A stretch of DNA of 64,000 nt from Hadesarchaea archaeon (GTDB taxonomy: Archaea > Hadarchaeota > Hadarchaeia > Hadarchaeales > WYZ-LMO6). Positions 3,034 through 26,642 of this stretch are shown here, in pieces (the first letter of the stretch is position 1; every line of letters begins with the position of its first letter). The notes below the pieces were generated by a model that was not told where the DNA came from, did not search any database, and saw only the letters and a list, made by a program, of their open reading frames with translations. The stretch covers positions 14,875 through 78,874 of the forward strand of contig JAPDJF010000003.1 of NCBI GenBank assembly GCA_029259185.1. Reading direction: 5' to 3'. The position numbers and the translations under genes were made by a program.

Positions 3034-3130
3034 GGGCCCGTGGTCTAGTGGTCATGAGGGGAGAACGGATCCCCTGACAAACGTCGCCTTGACGAGGCGA
3101 AGATCCTGGGTTCGAATCCCAGCGGGCCCA
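3034..3130 (+). tRNA. tRNA-Val(GAC) with a 24-nt intron at a non-canonical position (D-stem 3' side, between tRNA nt 24 and 25; genomic 3058-3081).
   Basis: Acceptor GGGCCCG/CGGGCCC with discriminator A. D-loop AGTGGTCA. T-arm CTGGG-TTCGAAT-CCCAG. Anticodon arm TCGCC-TTGACGA-GGCGA gives anticodon GAC with U33 and purine 37. Removing 3058-3081 restores a canonical ...GUCAUGACG... D-stem/position 26. The intron folds as an hBHBh'-like motif: a 4-bp helix GUCA/UGAC flanked by 3-nt bulges UGA and AAA, with an internal hairpin GGGGA-GAACGGA-UCCCC. Confidence 0.7.
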
Positions 3131-22098: not shown

Positions 22099-23935
22099 AG
22101 ACAAATACGTGCTCCTCACCCTGTTTTTGGTAGTCCTCTCTACACTCTCGATCTGGAGACCATGGGTACCCGTGGACGAGAGAGCAGAAAACACGATGGG
22201 GGTGGTGAGTCACTTCACCCGGGGGCTGAATTTCGGTGTAGATATAGTTGGTGGCTCTAGGATAATCCTAGCTCTAGAGGCATCCCACCTCACCATACAT
22301 CTCCCCCCAGATGACCCTGAAAACAAGTATCGAAAGGTGTGTGAACTGCTTGAGGATCGCCTCTTCACCAGGGTTCTGCCCGTAGACGCAGAAGGAAAGC
22401 TAATTTCTTCTGGTCTCCCCTACGATCCCGTGACGAACATCGCTATCATTGAAATAGGTCTGCCAGCCACAGGAGGCGTGTTGAGTTCGATCGAGAACCT
22501 AATAGGTGATCTCGTTGAGATAGTGAAAATCGAAAACGCGGTGTGCGGTGATACCCGTGACGAGGTGATAGAAATCCTGAAGAACCGGGTGGATCCCACC
22601 GGCACGCGCGGGGCCGTGTTGAAGTCATTGGGTGCGAACCTCGTTCTCTACGAGATTCCGGAACTCACTCCTCAGGAGGCTGAAGTCCTGCTGGGTAGAC
22701 GGGGGGAACTCGAGATATTCTTTGAAAACCAACGAGTGCTCCAAGGTGGTGATATAATCAGAGTGGATCCCCCCCATCCGAGTCTGGAGAAGACCAACAC
22801 GGTGGAACTCCCGTTCAGACTAACCGATGATGGTGCTGAAAGGTTCAGGAATGCGGCGGCGGGAAAACCTAATTATCCCACCGTGGTGTACGTCGACCGC
22901 CCCAAGGATGGAGTGATTCTCTTCGACGAATCCATTCTAGATCACCTCCACCGCTTCACCTATGATTCTTCTGCTTACATGTTTAAGGCCACGGGGATGC
23001 CTTCGGAGGGTGGTGGATATTATCTCCAAGTTCCAGCGGTTGGAACTCCGAAGGATGCTCTCTCAACCGATGCATTACGATTTCTGGAAGCTCAATCGGG
23101 GATCAAACTCAGAATCCTCTTAATCGGAGAATTCTCCCAGCGGGTGATAGGAAGCATTCCAAAGGGGTACTCGGTAGAGAACGTGGCGAGACTTACGGAG
23201 GTCGAGGATTGGATAAAGCAAGCGTGCGGATGTGAGAGCGTGATTACCATCAGCCCGGCGCTTGCTCAAGAGTTTGCAGAGGGAAAGGTGGTCAGAGACC
23301 TTGAGATAACCATCACGAGAGCATCGGTTGAGGAAGCGATGCGAGAAGCCAAAAACTTGAGAACAATTCTGACTCAGACCCTTCCGGTAAGTATCTCTAT
23401 CGAAGGAGAAACAGCGATAGAACCGAGGTTGGGGTCCATGTTCTTTAAGGAGATCGTGTGGGCGGGGATCATATCCCTTGTCGGGGTGGGACTAGTTATT
23501 TATCTCCGGTACAGGTGGTTGAGGATAAGCTTGGCCATCATGGGGGCGATGATATGTGAGCTCATCATCACCTTGGGTATAGCCTCCGTTCTTCCTTATA
23601 ACATGGATCTCGCGGAGCTTGGAGGAGTAATATTGGTAATAGGTACGGGTGTCGATTCACAGATAATCATTACGGACGAGCTAATGCGTGAAATGATTCC
23701 GTTCGTGAGACGGCCGAGCATGACCGAGCGAATAAAGAGGGCGTTCAGGGTGATATGGGGTTCCGCTTTGACCACGCTCGTGGCGATGATAGCGTTAGCC
23801 ACCCTTGGTTTCGGAGCGATGCGTGGGTTCGCCATCATCACTTTGCTCGGTATACTCGTCTCGGTGCTTATCACGAGACCATTTTATGCTAGGGTCGCGA
23901 GCAATATTATACCCGGAAAATCAAGTATGGGGTGA
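22043..23935 (+). CDS. secD: Protein-export membrane protein SecD.
   Basis: Large periplasmic domain plus a C-terminal 6-TM SecD/F domain. The true start is probably an internal TTG/ATG near 22090-22200. Confidence 0.7.
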   Translation: MRVLSSQERRGGKYLLLSKDKYVLLTLFLVVLSTLSIWRPWVPVDERAENTMGVVSHFTRGLNFGVDIVGGSRIILALEASHLTIHLPPDDPENKYRKVCELLEDRLFTRVLPVDAEGKLISSGLPYDPVTNIAIIEIGLPATGGVLSSIENLIGDLVEIVKIENAVCGDTRDEVIEILKNRVDPTGTRGAVLKSLGANLVLYEIPELTPQEAEVLLGRRGELEIFFENQRVLQGGDIIRVDPPHPSLEKTNTVELPFRLTDDGAERFRNAAAGKPNYPTVVYVDRPKDGVILFDESILDHLHRFTYDSSAYMFKATGMPSEGGGYYLQVPAVGTPKDALSTDALRFLEAQSGIKLRILLIGEFSQRVIGSIPKGYSVENVARLTEVEDWIKQACGCESVITISPALAQEFAEGKVVRDLEITITRASVEEAMREAKNLRTILTQTLPVSISIEGETAIEPRLGSMFFKEIVWAGIISLVGVGLVIYLRYRWLRISLAIMGAMICELIITLGIASVLPYNMDLAELGGVILVIGTGVDSQIIITDELMREMIPFVRRPSMTERIKRAFRVIWGSALTTLVAMIALATLGFGAMRGFAIITLLGILVSVLITRPFYARVASNIIPGKSSMG

Positions 23936-23939
23936 GAGA

Positions 23940-24761
23940 ATGATCAGGGTGTCCCTGTGTGGGGCGTGTGGGCGGATGGGTAAAACCATAGTTCAAAAGA
24001 TATCGAAACAAGAGGACATGAAGCTCGTGGCAGCGATCGATGCACCCCACACACCGTTGAAGGGAAAGGATGTAGGTGAGGTCGCAGGGGTGGGTAGGCT
24101 CGGGGTTGAAGTGGTGGGGGCGGATGAACTTGAGAGAGTCTTGGCGGAGACGAAGCCCGATGTGCTCGTGGACTTTACGATGGCAGAAGCAGCCGTTAGC
24201 AACATCAAAACGGCAGCCAAACTCAAGGTTCCAATCGTCGTTGGGACTACCGGGTTCTCGACGGGACAGATGGAAGAGATCCGGAGTGTTGTTAGGAATG
24301 CCAACATCCCTGCTTTGCTCGCTCCGAACATGTCCGTAGGTGTTAATGTCTTCTTTAAAATCCTCAGCGAGATGGCAAGGATTTTGGGAAAGGATTACGA
24401 TGTGGAGGTGGTGGAGATCCATCACCGTGGTAAACTCGATTCTCCAAGCGGTACGGCACTCAAAGCGGCGAAGATCGTGGCGGAGGAGTTCGGACGCGGC
24501 GAAGGAGCCGTGAAGATTGGAAGGTCCGCTGGAAAATCGAAGAGGGGTGGGGAGGTGTGTATTCATTCGATTCGGGTAGGAGACGTGGTGGGTGAACACA
24601 CAGCGATATTTGCCGGACCAGGTGAGAGAATGGAGCTTACCCACCGGGCACACAGCAGGGAAGCCTTCGCGGAAGGGGTGATAAAAGCCATCCGGTTCTT
24701 AGTGAAGGAGGGGAAACCTGGGGCGATCCTTGGTATGGAAAACGTGTTGGGTCTGAAGTAG
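23940..24761 (+). CDS. dapB: 4-hydroxy-tetrahydrodipicolinate reductase.
   Basis: MIRVSLCGACGRMG Rossmann N-terminus. HHRGKLDSPSGTA motif. Confidence 0.8.
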   Translation: MIRVSLCGACGRMGKTIVQKISKQEDMKLVAAIDAPHTPLKGKDVGEVAGVGRLGVEVVGADELERVLAETKPDVLVDFTMAEAAVSNIKTAAKLKVPIVVGTTGFSTGQMEEIRSVVRNANIPALLAPNMSVGVNVFFKILSEMARILGKDYDVEVVEIHHRGKLDSPSGTALKAAKIVAEEFGRGEGAVKIGRSAGKSKRGGEVCIHSIRVGDVVGEHTAIFAGPGERMELTHRAHSREAFAEGVIKAIRFLVKEGKPGAILGMENVLGLK

Positions 24762-25163: not shown

Positions 25164-26294
25164 ATGAGGATTCCCGTCGGAATACTCGGTGCTACGGGCG
25201 AAGTGGGGCAGAAATTCGTGCTCAACCTGCAGGAGCATCCTTGGTTCGAGATAGTGGGTTTGTACGCCTCCAAGCGGTCTGCAGGAAGGACCTATGGGAA
25301 GGCTTTGAATTATGGGGAAGAGACCTCTAGGTGGTTCTGTGCAGGGGAGCCCAAGCGGGATATATTGGATATCCAGGTTGGCAATGTGGACGAACCGGAT
25401 GAGGGTATAGATCTATTCTTTTCTGCCCTGCCTTCGGAGGCTGCGTTGGACGTAGAAGGGAAAATCGCGAAAAAAAAACCCGTGATCAGTACGGCCTCTG
25501 CGTACAGATACTTTGACGATAGCTTCGTGTTCCTTCCCGGGGTTAACGAGTCCCATGCCGGGATGATAAAGATCCAACGAGAAAGGAGAGGGTGGAAAGG
25601 TTTCGTAGTGCCCCAGCCGAATTGTACTACGATAGGACTCGCTATGTCCCTCAAGCCCATATATGCAGACTTTGGGCTCCGGCGAGTTATCATGGTGTCC
25701 ATGCAGGCGGTTTCCGGAGCGGGATACGAGGCGGTGGGTAAGTGGGCGGAGCAAAGAAAGATTCAGGGAATCGAGCTTCCCCGGCCGCTAGAGGAGTTCA
25801 TCCCCAACACCTTCGAGGGGAATGTTATCCCTCATATACCAAAAGAGGAGGAGAAGGTAAAGCGTGAAACTCTGAAGCTCCTCGGGGAGTTCGATGGGGA
25901 GAGGATAAAGCAAGCGAGCTTTCAGATAGCTTGTAAATGCAATCGCGTCCCCGTGCTTGAGGGGCACACGGAATCCGTGTTCATCGAGACCGAGAGGAAG
26001 TGTGGTGTGAACGAGCTGAAGGAGAGCTGGAGAAAATACCGGGGTGAGGCTCAGAGACTGAACCTCCCTTCCGCTTCTCCTCATCCGATTGTGGTCAAAG
26101 ATGAAGTCGATAGGCCCCAACCGAGATTCGATGCCAACACAGAGGGTGGGATGTGTGTAGTCATCGGTGGGGTCGAAAGCAACGTTTTCGAAAATGGCTT
26201 CCAGTACACCGTGCTTTCACACAACACAGAACTTGGTGCGGCGAAGGGGGCTGTGCTGGCTGCGGAGTATTTGCTCAAAACAGGATGGATCTAA
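25164..26294 (+). CDS. asd: Aspartate-semialdehyde dehydrogenase.
   Basis: MRIPVGILGATGEVGQ. Catalytic Cys region (PNCTTIGLAM). Length about 377 aa. Confidence 0.85.
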   Translation: MRIPVGILGATGEVGQKFVLNLQEHPWFEIVGLYASKRSAGRTYGKALNYGEETSRWFCAGEPKRDILDIQVGNVDEPDEGIDLFFSALPSEAALDVEGKIAKKKPVISTASAYRYFDDSFVFLPGVNESHAGMIKIQRERRGWKGFVVPQPNCTTIGLAMSLKPIYADFGLRRVIMVSMQAVSGAGYEAVGKWAEQRKIQGIELPRPLEEFIPNTFEGNVIPHIPKEEEKVKRETLKLLGEFDGERIKQASFQIACKCNRVPVLEGHTESVFIETERKCGVNELKESWRKYRGEAQRLNLPSASPHPIVVKDEVDRPQPRFDANTEGGMCVVIGGVESNVFENGFQYTVLSHNTELGAAKGAVLAAEYLLKTGWI

Positions 26295-26366: not shown

Positions 26367-26525
26367 TGGTAGCGGGGGCTGGACTTGAACCAGCGACTTC
26401 CGGCACCCACGTTTTGCGCGGGCGTCTCCGGGTCTCGCAGAGGTTTGGGTTCTCCTATGAGCCCGGCGGGCACTCCACGCTGCCTTGGGGGCAGAGTAGG
26501 TGCTCTACTTCTGCTCTACCCCGCT
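26367..26525 (-). tRNA. tRNA-like gene with encoded 3' CCA. Too long (about 159 nt) for an intron-less tRNA; probably intron-containing; identity unresolved (possibly a CCA anticodon, Trp).
   Basis: Minus-strand 3' end ...GCTGG-TTCAAGT-CCAGC-CCCCGCT-A-CCA forms a canonical T-arm plus the acceptor 3' strand. The matching 5' strand AGCGGGG lies 150 nt upstream. Two internal hairpins carry CCCAA loops. Confidence 0.4.
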
Positions 26526-26642
26526 ACAATAACTCCCCGCTACCGTAGGTTGGTTTTACTTCTCGGGATAAATGATTTACGTATCCACCTCAGGCTCCCT
26601 AAGGGCATCTCCACTTAAATAACTGGAAGAGAGACTGAGCTT

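Follow-up and report, generated by a model that had tools for sequence, protein, structure and literature searches.

Multi-intron tRNA genes in archaea have been described for the Thermoproteales, for which the literature taken as our basis comprises the studies of Marck & Grosjean (2003) and Sugahara et al. (2007, 2008). In these genes, introns of about 20-35 nt, at most three per gene, occupy both canonical and non-canonical sites and are bounded by BHB or relaxed BHB motifs (PMC4033280; PMC8450103), and in multi-intron tRNAs some introns must leave before the motif of a neighbouring one can form (PMC4033280). Within the Hadesarchaea, the main text of Kaneta et al. (2018, PMC5829648) reports a marked disruption of tRNA genes in YNP_N21, whose EndA is there given as alpha4 with an L3 insert. 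For the Atabeyarchaeia and Freyarchaeia, the part of the paper by Valentin-Alvarado et al. (2024, PMC11291895) that was available to us states that 92-95% of the tRNA genes bear introns, many of them several, and that the set includes a three-intron iMet gene as well as four-intron genes. In Nanoarchaeum equitans the tRNAs are split, and complementary leaders hold the pieces together and build a relaxed BHB (Randau et al. 2005, in PMC4033280).

The locus considered here lies on the minus strand of a stretch of DNA of 64,000 nucleotides (hereafter the window, to which all coordinates refer unless another locus is named). Judged from its own sequence and from that of its relatives, the segment 26525-26370 is very probably the initiator tRNA-Met(CAU) gene of a member of the Hadarchaeota (Hadesarchaea), with three predicted introns at tRNA positions 10/11, 37/38 and 45/46. 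A preliminary description of the window had recognised at this place a T arm (GCTGG-TTCAAGT-CCAGC, 26394-26378), a 3' acceptor strand (CCCCGCT, 26377-26371) followed by A (26370) and CCA (26369-26367), two tandem copies of AGCGGGG (26525-26519 and 26541-26535, 16 nt from start to start) and about 80 nt of extra sequence in the body of the tRNA. All of these are present, the extra sequence amounting to 81 nt (31+22+28), and the idea put forward there of a tRNA with several unusually placed introns agrees with the three positions just named. From 26544 to 26367 the minus strand reads GGTAGCGGGG-AGTTATTGT-AGCGGGGTAG... and ends ...GCTGGTTCAAGTCCAGC-CCCCGCT-A-CCA, and the fold of this 178-nt precursor reaches -86.1 kcal/mol (z = -4.69), a stability that none of 200 shuffles equalled.

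Followed in the direction of reading, the locus begins with a TATA-box-like TTTATC (26567..26572), a putative promoter that starts 28 nt upstream of a leader copy, which duplicates the 5' acceptor strand. Of the 14 tabulated orthologues, 13 have TTTATC, TTTATG or TTAAAG at 27-30 nt, and the remaining row, that of L123 (35), is mis-anchored. The distance usual in archaea between TATA box and start is known, and since the TATA-like box keeps it, we infer that transcription starts at or close to the nucleotide with which the leader copy begins. This copy, GGTAGCGGGG (26535..26544), consists of the duplicated strand together with GGT and is separated from the 5' end of the tRNA by the spacer AGTTATTGT (26526..26534). 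Both the sequence and the length (9-11 nt) of the spacer vary among orthologues; its final two nucleotides, G-Y, are conserved and can lengthen the outer helix of the motif of intron 1. Exon 1 (AGCGGGGTAG, 26516..26525, tRNA positions 1-10) is contiguous with exon 2 in the orthologues L145 and L149, which are without the 10/11 intron. The predicted intron 1 (26485..26515, 31 nt) interrupts the D stem at 10/11, its junction being fixed by alignment to intron-less genes, and exon 2 (26456..26484, positions 11-37) supplies the rest of the D arm, the 5' anticodon stem and the anticodon CAU (26459-26457). At the canonical position 37/38 follows the predicted intron 2 (26434..26455, 22 nt) with a BHB-like motif, then exon 3 (ACCCGGAG, 26426..26433, positions 38-45 of the spliced parse), and in the variable loop, at 45/46, the predicted intron 3 (26398..26425, 28 nt) with a strict BHB of the HBh' type. 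Exon 4 (26370..26397, positions 46-73) contains the T arm, the 3' acceptor strand and the discriminator A73, and is followed by CCA (26367..26369), of which C74 and C75 can also pair with the GG of the leader copy.

When these three segments were removed by hand from the 159-nt precursor 26525-26367, the in-silico product AGCGGGGUAGGGCAGCGUGGAGUGCCCGCCGGGCUCAUAACCCGGAGGUCGCUGGUUCAAGUCCAGCCCCCGCUACCA proved to be a perfect cloverleaf of 75 nt plus CCA, and ARAGORN called the spliced 78-mer tRNA-Met(cat), the anticodon CAU lying within the 7-nt loop CUCAUAA. Archaeal initiator tRNAs carry as their signature a terminal A1:U72 pair and three successive G:C pairs (29-31:39-41) in the anticodon stem. 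The spliced product has A1:U72 as well as G29-31:C39-41, reading AGCGGGG...CCGGG-CUCAUAA-CCCGG...CCCCGCU-A, and none of these signature columns varies among the 11 aligned sequences. As references we used at least four intron-less archaeal initiator genes, found in a scan of contigs whose pattern covered the last two-thirds of the tRNA, towards its 3' end, with optional gaps, and whose matches were mostly bacterial initiator tRNAs. Against independent uninterrupted archaeal initiator tRNA genes the spliced product matches at 66-70 of 75 positions; it is identical at 69/75 to the intron-less Iainarchaeum gene (L005) and at 70/75 to the uninterrupted gene L149 of a related Hadarchaeales contig. 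Four of the five differences from L149 make two compensated T-stem pairs, and every difference in the T stem is compensatory. In the set used for scoring the cloverleaf, which joins seven distinct spliced sequences with four intron-less archaeal initiator genes (11 in all), 99.6% of the cells pair and eight pairs are changed on both sides, a result that 0 of 500 shuffles reached.

The gene in its unspliced form escapes the standard tools. ARAGORN called no tRNA anywhere within the window and returned nothing for the precursor in its intron mode either, and Rfam gave no match at the locus 26525-26367, at the gathering threshold or at E<=10. Rejection by tRNA finders, which the preliminary description had named as part of a refutation, is thus what the unspliced gene meets in both programs; the spliced product is accepted by ARAGORN. 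Such a rejection reflects the limits of the tools, since none of the intron-containing orthologues tested is recognised by Rfam, not even one whose only intron lies in the T loop, and yet it scores the intron-less orthologue L149 as a tRNA with 61.8 bits; ARAGORN too misses every unspliced intron-containing orthologue tested. Taken at face value, the failure of the finders and the large amount of extra sequence in the precursor would fit a decaying tRNA pseudogene or a tRNA-derived repeat in place of a functional gene, and a tRNA-derived element had indeed been named as an alternative at the outset. We consider this very improbable, because the exons are perfectly competent to form a cloverleaf and are conserved and covarying among orthologues, with compensatory T-stem changes over seven distinct mature sequences, while a promoter-like box stands at conserved spacing, the gene is found beside asd in several relatives, and Rfam finds no second initiator tRNA within the 64-kb window.

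The identity originally suggested, tRNA-Trp with the anticodon CCA, was derived from two hairpin loops that contain CCCAA. The loops do exist, but neither of them is the anticodon loop: the first is formed where the 3' end of intron 1 abuts exon 2 (CUGCC-CCCAA-GGCAG), and the second caps the 37/38 intron as its apical loop, so that the hairpin loops containing CCA are intronic. An intron-containing tRNA-Trp, for which the occurrence of CCCAA in both loops speaks, is hardly conceivable given that any cloverleaf requires the removal of the segments in which the two loops lie, that the sole cloverleaf carries CAU in the loop CUCAUAA, and that GGGCTCATAACCC is uninterrupted in the orthologues without the 37/38 intron; the spliced cloverleaf, the parses of the orthologues and the alignment to intron-less genes refute it. 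A split or permuted tRNA gene was considered as well and is ruled out by the four exons, which are colinear within 159 nt.

The junctions of the predicted introns were derived from the alignment, and a composite BHB score was then ranked among the 3846 possible junction pairs. The alignment-derived junctions coincide with BHB geometry, those at 10/11, 37/38 and 45/46 ranking 1st, 2nd and 5th of 3846, respectively. The 10/11 motif has the central helix G4-G7/CCCC (4/4 pairs), the bulges UAG|A (4 nt, 5') and AA|G (3'), an outer helix of 2 bp and an inner helix with five uninterrupted pairs, or 9 bp if a bulge is included; the latter is the 9-bp bulged hairpin GCAGAAGTAG/CTACTCTGC that had been noticed beforehand, now placed as the inner helix of the first intron. 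In the 37/38 motif the central helix CUCA/UGCG forms 3/4 pairs with one U.C mismatch, the bulges are UA|G and AG|A, the inner helix has 3 bp and the outer helix, of 5 bp, is the anticodon stem; for this region RNAfold favours a slightly different local pairing. The 45/46 motif combines the central helix CCGG/CCGG (4/4 pairs) and the bulges AG|A and AA|G with an inner helix of 8 bp and with no outer helix. If a strict BHB is taken to mean a 4-bp central helix between 3-nt bulges on opposite strands, each cut after its second nucleotide, the 45/46 motif alone is strict, and those at 37/38 and 10/11 are relaxed; relaxed forms like these have been described for endonucleases of broad specificity. 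Since BHB-like motifs of the strict kind are common by chance, with about 1.8 in each shuffled precursor, the weight of the argument lies in the coincidence of motif and junction and not in the motifs by themselves.

Splicing at 45/46 leaves the variable loop AGGUC, the same that is read without interruption in the orthologues lacking this intron. An alternative placement of the third intron at 46/47, with the variable loop AGAUC, was rejected, as 45/46 and AGGUC follow alike from the CCGG/CCGG BHB and from the orthologues without interruption. BHB geometry is also present at the other introns of the relatives, with CGCC/GGCG at 30/31 and UUCA/UGAA at 59/60, and at 20a/21 the central helix covaries between relatives (CAGG/CCUG against AUGG/CCAU).

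The motifs compete for the same nucleotides: that at 45/46 takes C40-G43, which the 37/38 motif requires as anticodon stem, and that at 10/11 takes G4-G7 of the acceptor stem. Because the motifs are jointly incompatible with the final cloverleaf, the introns must be removed stepwise, with refolding. In the archaeal pathway the splicing endonuclease excises introns, the exons are ligated and the ends are trimmed. For the present gene, a precursor probably transcribed from the TATA-like box at 26572-26567 would be cut by this endonuclease at the BHB-type motif of each intron, the exons would then be ligated, and trimming of the ends would yield a standard tRNA of 75 nt.

Orthologues were obtained from loci anchored on asd and from a metagenome scan with an exon 1/intron 1 pattern, which added 18 more loci. 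They were parsed by alignment to the intron-free sequence, with long gaps free and structure ignored, which gave 14 distinct genes, and 15 after the later addition of L146. All of the 14 distinct orthologues parsed splice to a tRNA that ARAGORN calls tRNA-Met. The 10/11 intron is carried by 15 distinct genes, each with two to five introns, and all of them splice to the same tRNA; over the whole set the introns take six positions, namely 10/11, 20a/21, 30/31, 37/38, 45/46 and 59/60. Several orthologues lack one or another of the introns and read through the site: L125, L129 and L141 have GGGCTCATAACCCGGAGGTC, in which the predicted junction is uninterrupted, and L145 and L149 have AGCGGGGT(A/G)GGGCAGC, in which the predicted 10/11 junction is uninterrupted. 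Such uninterrupted junctions, taken from sequence comparison, give indirect support to the predicted excision.

At one end of this diversity stands L149 (5912-5986, minus strand), which has no intron, and close to it L145 (minus strand, just downstream of asd), which has the 59/60 intron only; both are without an upstream copy of the 5' strand. At the other end, the gene of L123 (6108-6320, minus strand) has five BHB introns, at 10/11, 30/31, 37/38, 45/46 and 59/60, and is identical in L124, L138 and L144 (JGI 3300005573, 3300005860). Four introns are found in the L122/L128-type genes and in L136. The locus L125 (5208-5375, minus strand) belongs to Hadesarchaea archaeon YNP_N21 (LQMP01000012) and has its introns at 10/11, 20a/21 and 59/60; an oligo-T run lies immediately 3' of this gene.

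With respect to the surroundings, the Asd protein of the window finds its best named matches, at 66-72% identity, entirely among MAGs of Candidatus Hadarchaeum, Hadarchaeales and Hadesarchaea. The neighbourhood itself is ordinary, with dapB and asd of the lysine pathway upstream, then a Na/Ca exchanger and then a complete trp operon (trpE, G, D, C, F, B, A); neighbouring genes occupy 23886-24761, 25164-26294 and the region from 27592 onward in the window, and 9587-16303 in L121. The initiator tRNA gene adjoins asd in several relatives, where it is located downstream of that gene and encoded on the other strand, and four further asd-anchored loci (L126, L147, L148, L150) contain no initiator tRNA gene. 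The sole tRNA that Rfam finds in the window is a tRNA-Val with the anticodon GAC (3034-3130, plus strand, 57.3 bits), which has an insert of 26 nt in the D-loop region and is missed by ARAGORN; it ends GGGCCCA-CCT, with no encoded CCA, and there is no copy of its own 5' strand upstream of it.

The feature that sets the initiator gene apart is the leader copy. As given above, it precedes the tRNA at 26544-26535, and over its full length it is exactly complementary, in antiparallel orientation, to the 3' end CCCCGCTACC (26377-26368). It is present in 15/15 distinct genes with the 10/11 intron and in 0/2 without this intron (L145, L149; Fisher p = 0.007, phylogeny not corrected), in a gene set that is biased for this association because a DNA pattern that demanded the 10/11 intron had supplied every gene bearing it except one. 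Together with positions 73-75, the helix of the leader copy with the 3' strand has 10-12 bp in 13 of 14 tabulated genes, and the helix of L123, counted by hand, has 9 bp and one terminal mismatch. In the minimum-free-energy fold of every precursor, the leader copy closes with the 3' strand and G4-G7 with the C run of the intron. By the partition function, the leader copy pairs with the 3' strand with P of 0.89-1.0 when the leader is included (1.00 for the window), and the central helix of intron 1 can form; when the leader is omitted, the acceptor stem has P of 0.93-0.98 and the central helix of intron 1 has P of 0.00.

These models suggest, as a tentative reading, that the leader copy may pair with the 3' acceptor strand and the following ACC for as long as the 10/11 motif occupies the true 5' strand. 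Pairing of this kind would leave G4-G7 available to the central helix of that motif and would tether the 5' exon of 10 nt to the body of the tRNA between cleavage and ligation, and the copy would afterwards be removed with the leader. Slightly more speculative is the wider proposal that the leader acts as a surrogate acceptor strand, that an intron of the 10/11 type, which borrows from the acceptor stem, could be maintained only with such a helper, and that the copy might thus be an undescribed cis-acting RNA chaperone element. On the whole, we grade our confidence in this role of the leader as moderate to low.

As for the origin of the copy, the tRNA of L145 starts where the leader copy starts in other genes, with the same flank (GTGGT|AGCGGGG) and the same spacing to the TATA box, and the L128-type genes retain a perfect repeat of 10 nt, with AGCGGGGTAG occurring twice. 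On these two grounds the probable origin of the leader copy is a tandem duplication connected with the acquisition of the 10/11 intron. The same observations, which place the copy at the ancestral 5' end, would also suit a functionless relic, that is, a tandem duplication of about 20 nt that accompanied the gain of the intron and is still undecayed. Some of the folding data lean the same way, as the leader would hinder the final acceptor stem: with all introns removed, it still keeps the 3' strand in the model (P ~0.95). Nor does covariation in the leader helix argue strongly for a function, since 98/500 shuffles do equally well and 7/10 pairs are trivial, the leader copy being a duplicate of the 5' strand; the sole compensated change is that of YNP_N21 (L125), with GAT in the leader and ATC at the 3' end (73-75), which turns G:C into A:U, and in three further cases a C facing G has become U. 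Against a relic, however, stands the uneven pattern of decay. Free divergence is seen in the neighbouring spacer, which has at least five forms, and at positions 8-10 of the upstream copy, whereas positions -3 to 7 of the leader copy show only isolated changes, and these keep the pairing except for two at the inner end of the helix (L123, L146), one of the changes being compensated on the partner strand. Moreover, the copy has been kept among lineages whose Asd is only 65-73% identical to that of the window. A functionless relic therefore seems rather unlikely to us, and the pairing of the leader copy with the 3' strand during splicing somewhat likelier.

There is another way of reading the two copies, by which the upstream one would be the true 5' acceptor strand, a fourth intron made up of the spacer and the second AGCGGGG would lie at about 7/8, and 26541 would be the first nucleotide of the mature tRNA. 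The mature sequence in the window is the same under both readings, the putative transcription start lies at the leader copy, in the orthologues without the 10/11 intron the tRNA begins just as far from the TATA box, and the pairing of the leader copy with the 3' strand is thermodynamically the preferred closing helix before as well as after splicing. Nevertheless, the boundaries of such an intron would lie in a direct repeat, none of whose 4-mers is self-complementary, so that no BHB is possible; U8-A9-G10 follows the downstream copy in every gene and the upstream copy only in the L122/L128-type genes; and the upstream copy of L123 and L146 ends in T or A, a mismatch with C66. The lack of a BHB between direct repeats, and the occurrence of U8-A9-G10 after the downstream copy only in most lineages, make a fourth intron quite improbable, and the upstream copy is hence treated here as part of the leader.

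Concerning the maturation of the ends, the junction between leader and A1 has no BHB through which the endonuclease could generate the 5' end, and the base of the helix between the leader and the 3' end has no bulges and so no processing-stem BHB of the rRNA kind. In the spacer of most orthologues we observed GCTACC(A), which repeats the 3' end of the tRNA and can fold with the leader copy into a hairpin; the spacer is AAGCTACCAGC or a variant of it in L127, L129, L131-L133, L136, L140 and L141, and TAGCTACCTGC in L122, L128, L130 and L134. A role of this motif (GCUACC(A) in the RNA) in flipping the leader off the 3' strand after splicing was considered and does not hold in general, for the window and L125 are without it, and in the folding model only L132 and L141 show such a release of the 3' strand. 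CCA follows the discriminator in the window, L123, L131/L133 and L136, and CCT, TCA, CTC or TCC in the other orthologues. At positions 74-75 no base other than C or U occurs, and both positions are always paired with the leader (G:C or G.U, and A:U in L125), and for this reason the apparent CCA tail may owe as much to the leader helix as to an encoded CCA end.

Compared with the known systems, the present gene shares with those of the Thermoproteales its short predicted introns, their borders of BHB or relaxed BHB type and the stepwise removal deduced for them. It differs in its host, which is a member of the Hadarchaeota and not of the TACK group, and for the multi-intron genes of the Thermoproteales the literature that we searched describes no conserved leader element that copies the 5' acceptor strand. 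YNP_N21 is of the same phylum, and its orthologue (L125) likewise has three introns, although at 10/11, 20a/21 and 59/60 as against 10/11, 37/38 and 45/46 in the window; the main text of Kaneta et al. (2018, PMC5829648) describes no individual tRNA genes of this genome. The Asgard lineages belong to another phylum, and the part of the corresponding paper available to us makes no mention of a duplicated 5' strand and lists four introns in its table, as against five in the L123 group (PMC11291895). Five introns in one tRNA gene would thus exceed the three to four reported so far, as far as the sources at hand extend. To the split tRNAs of N. equitans there is a conceptual likeness in the tethering role proposed for the leader copy, which would stand by analogy beside that of the split leaders; unlike those, the gene here is contiguous and colinear, and the additional pairing joins a duplicated exon strand to the 3' end of the same tRNA, where in N. 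equitans leader pairs with leader. In the literature searched we found described neither a leader copy tied to a 10/11 intron nor a tRNA gene with five introns.

What follows for annotation is that an essential initiator tRNA is invisible to the standard procedure here, and since both ARAGORN and Rfam miss the intron-containing genes, genomes of the Hadarchaeota will seem to lack an initiator tRNA. Beyond this, the gene family forms a natural series of one tRNA in related genomes, with zero to five introns at six positions, which is useful for the study of the gain and loss of BHB introns and of the ordered resolution of competing splicing motifs. If the proposal of a surrogate leader is true, it would explain how an intron can be placed where its splicing motif conflicts with the acceptor stem of its own tRNA, and the leader copy would be a directly testable cis element. 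In the end, multi-intron tRNA in archaea is already known from the systems described above, and the conserved leader copy is possibly new.
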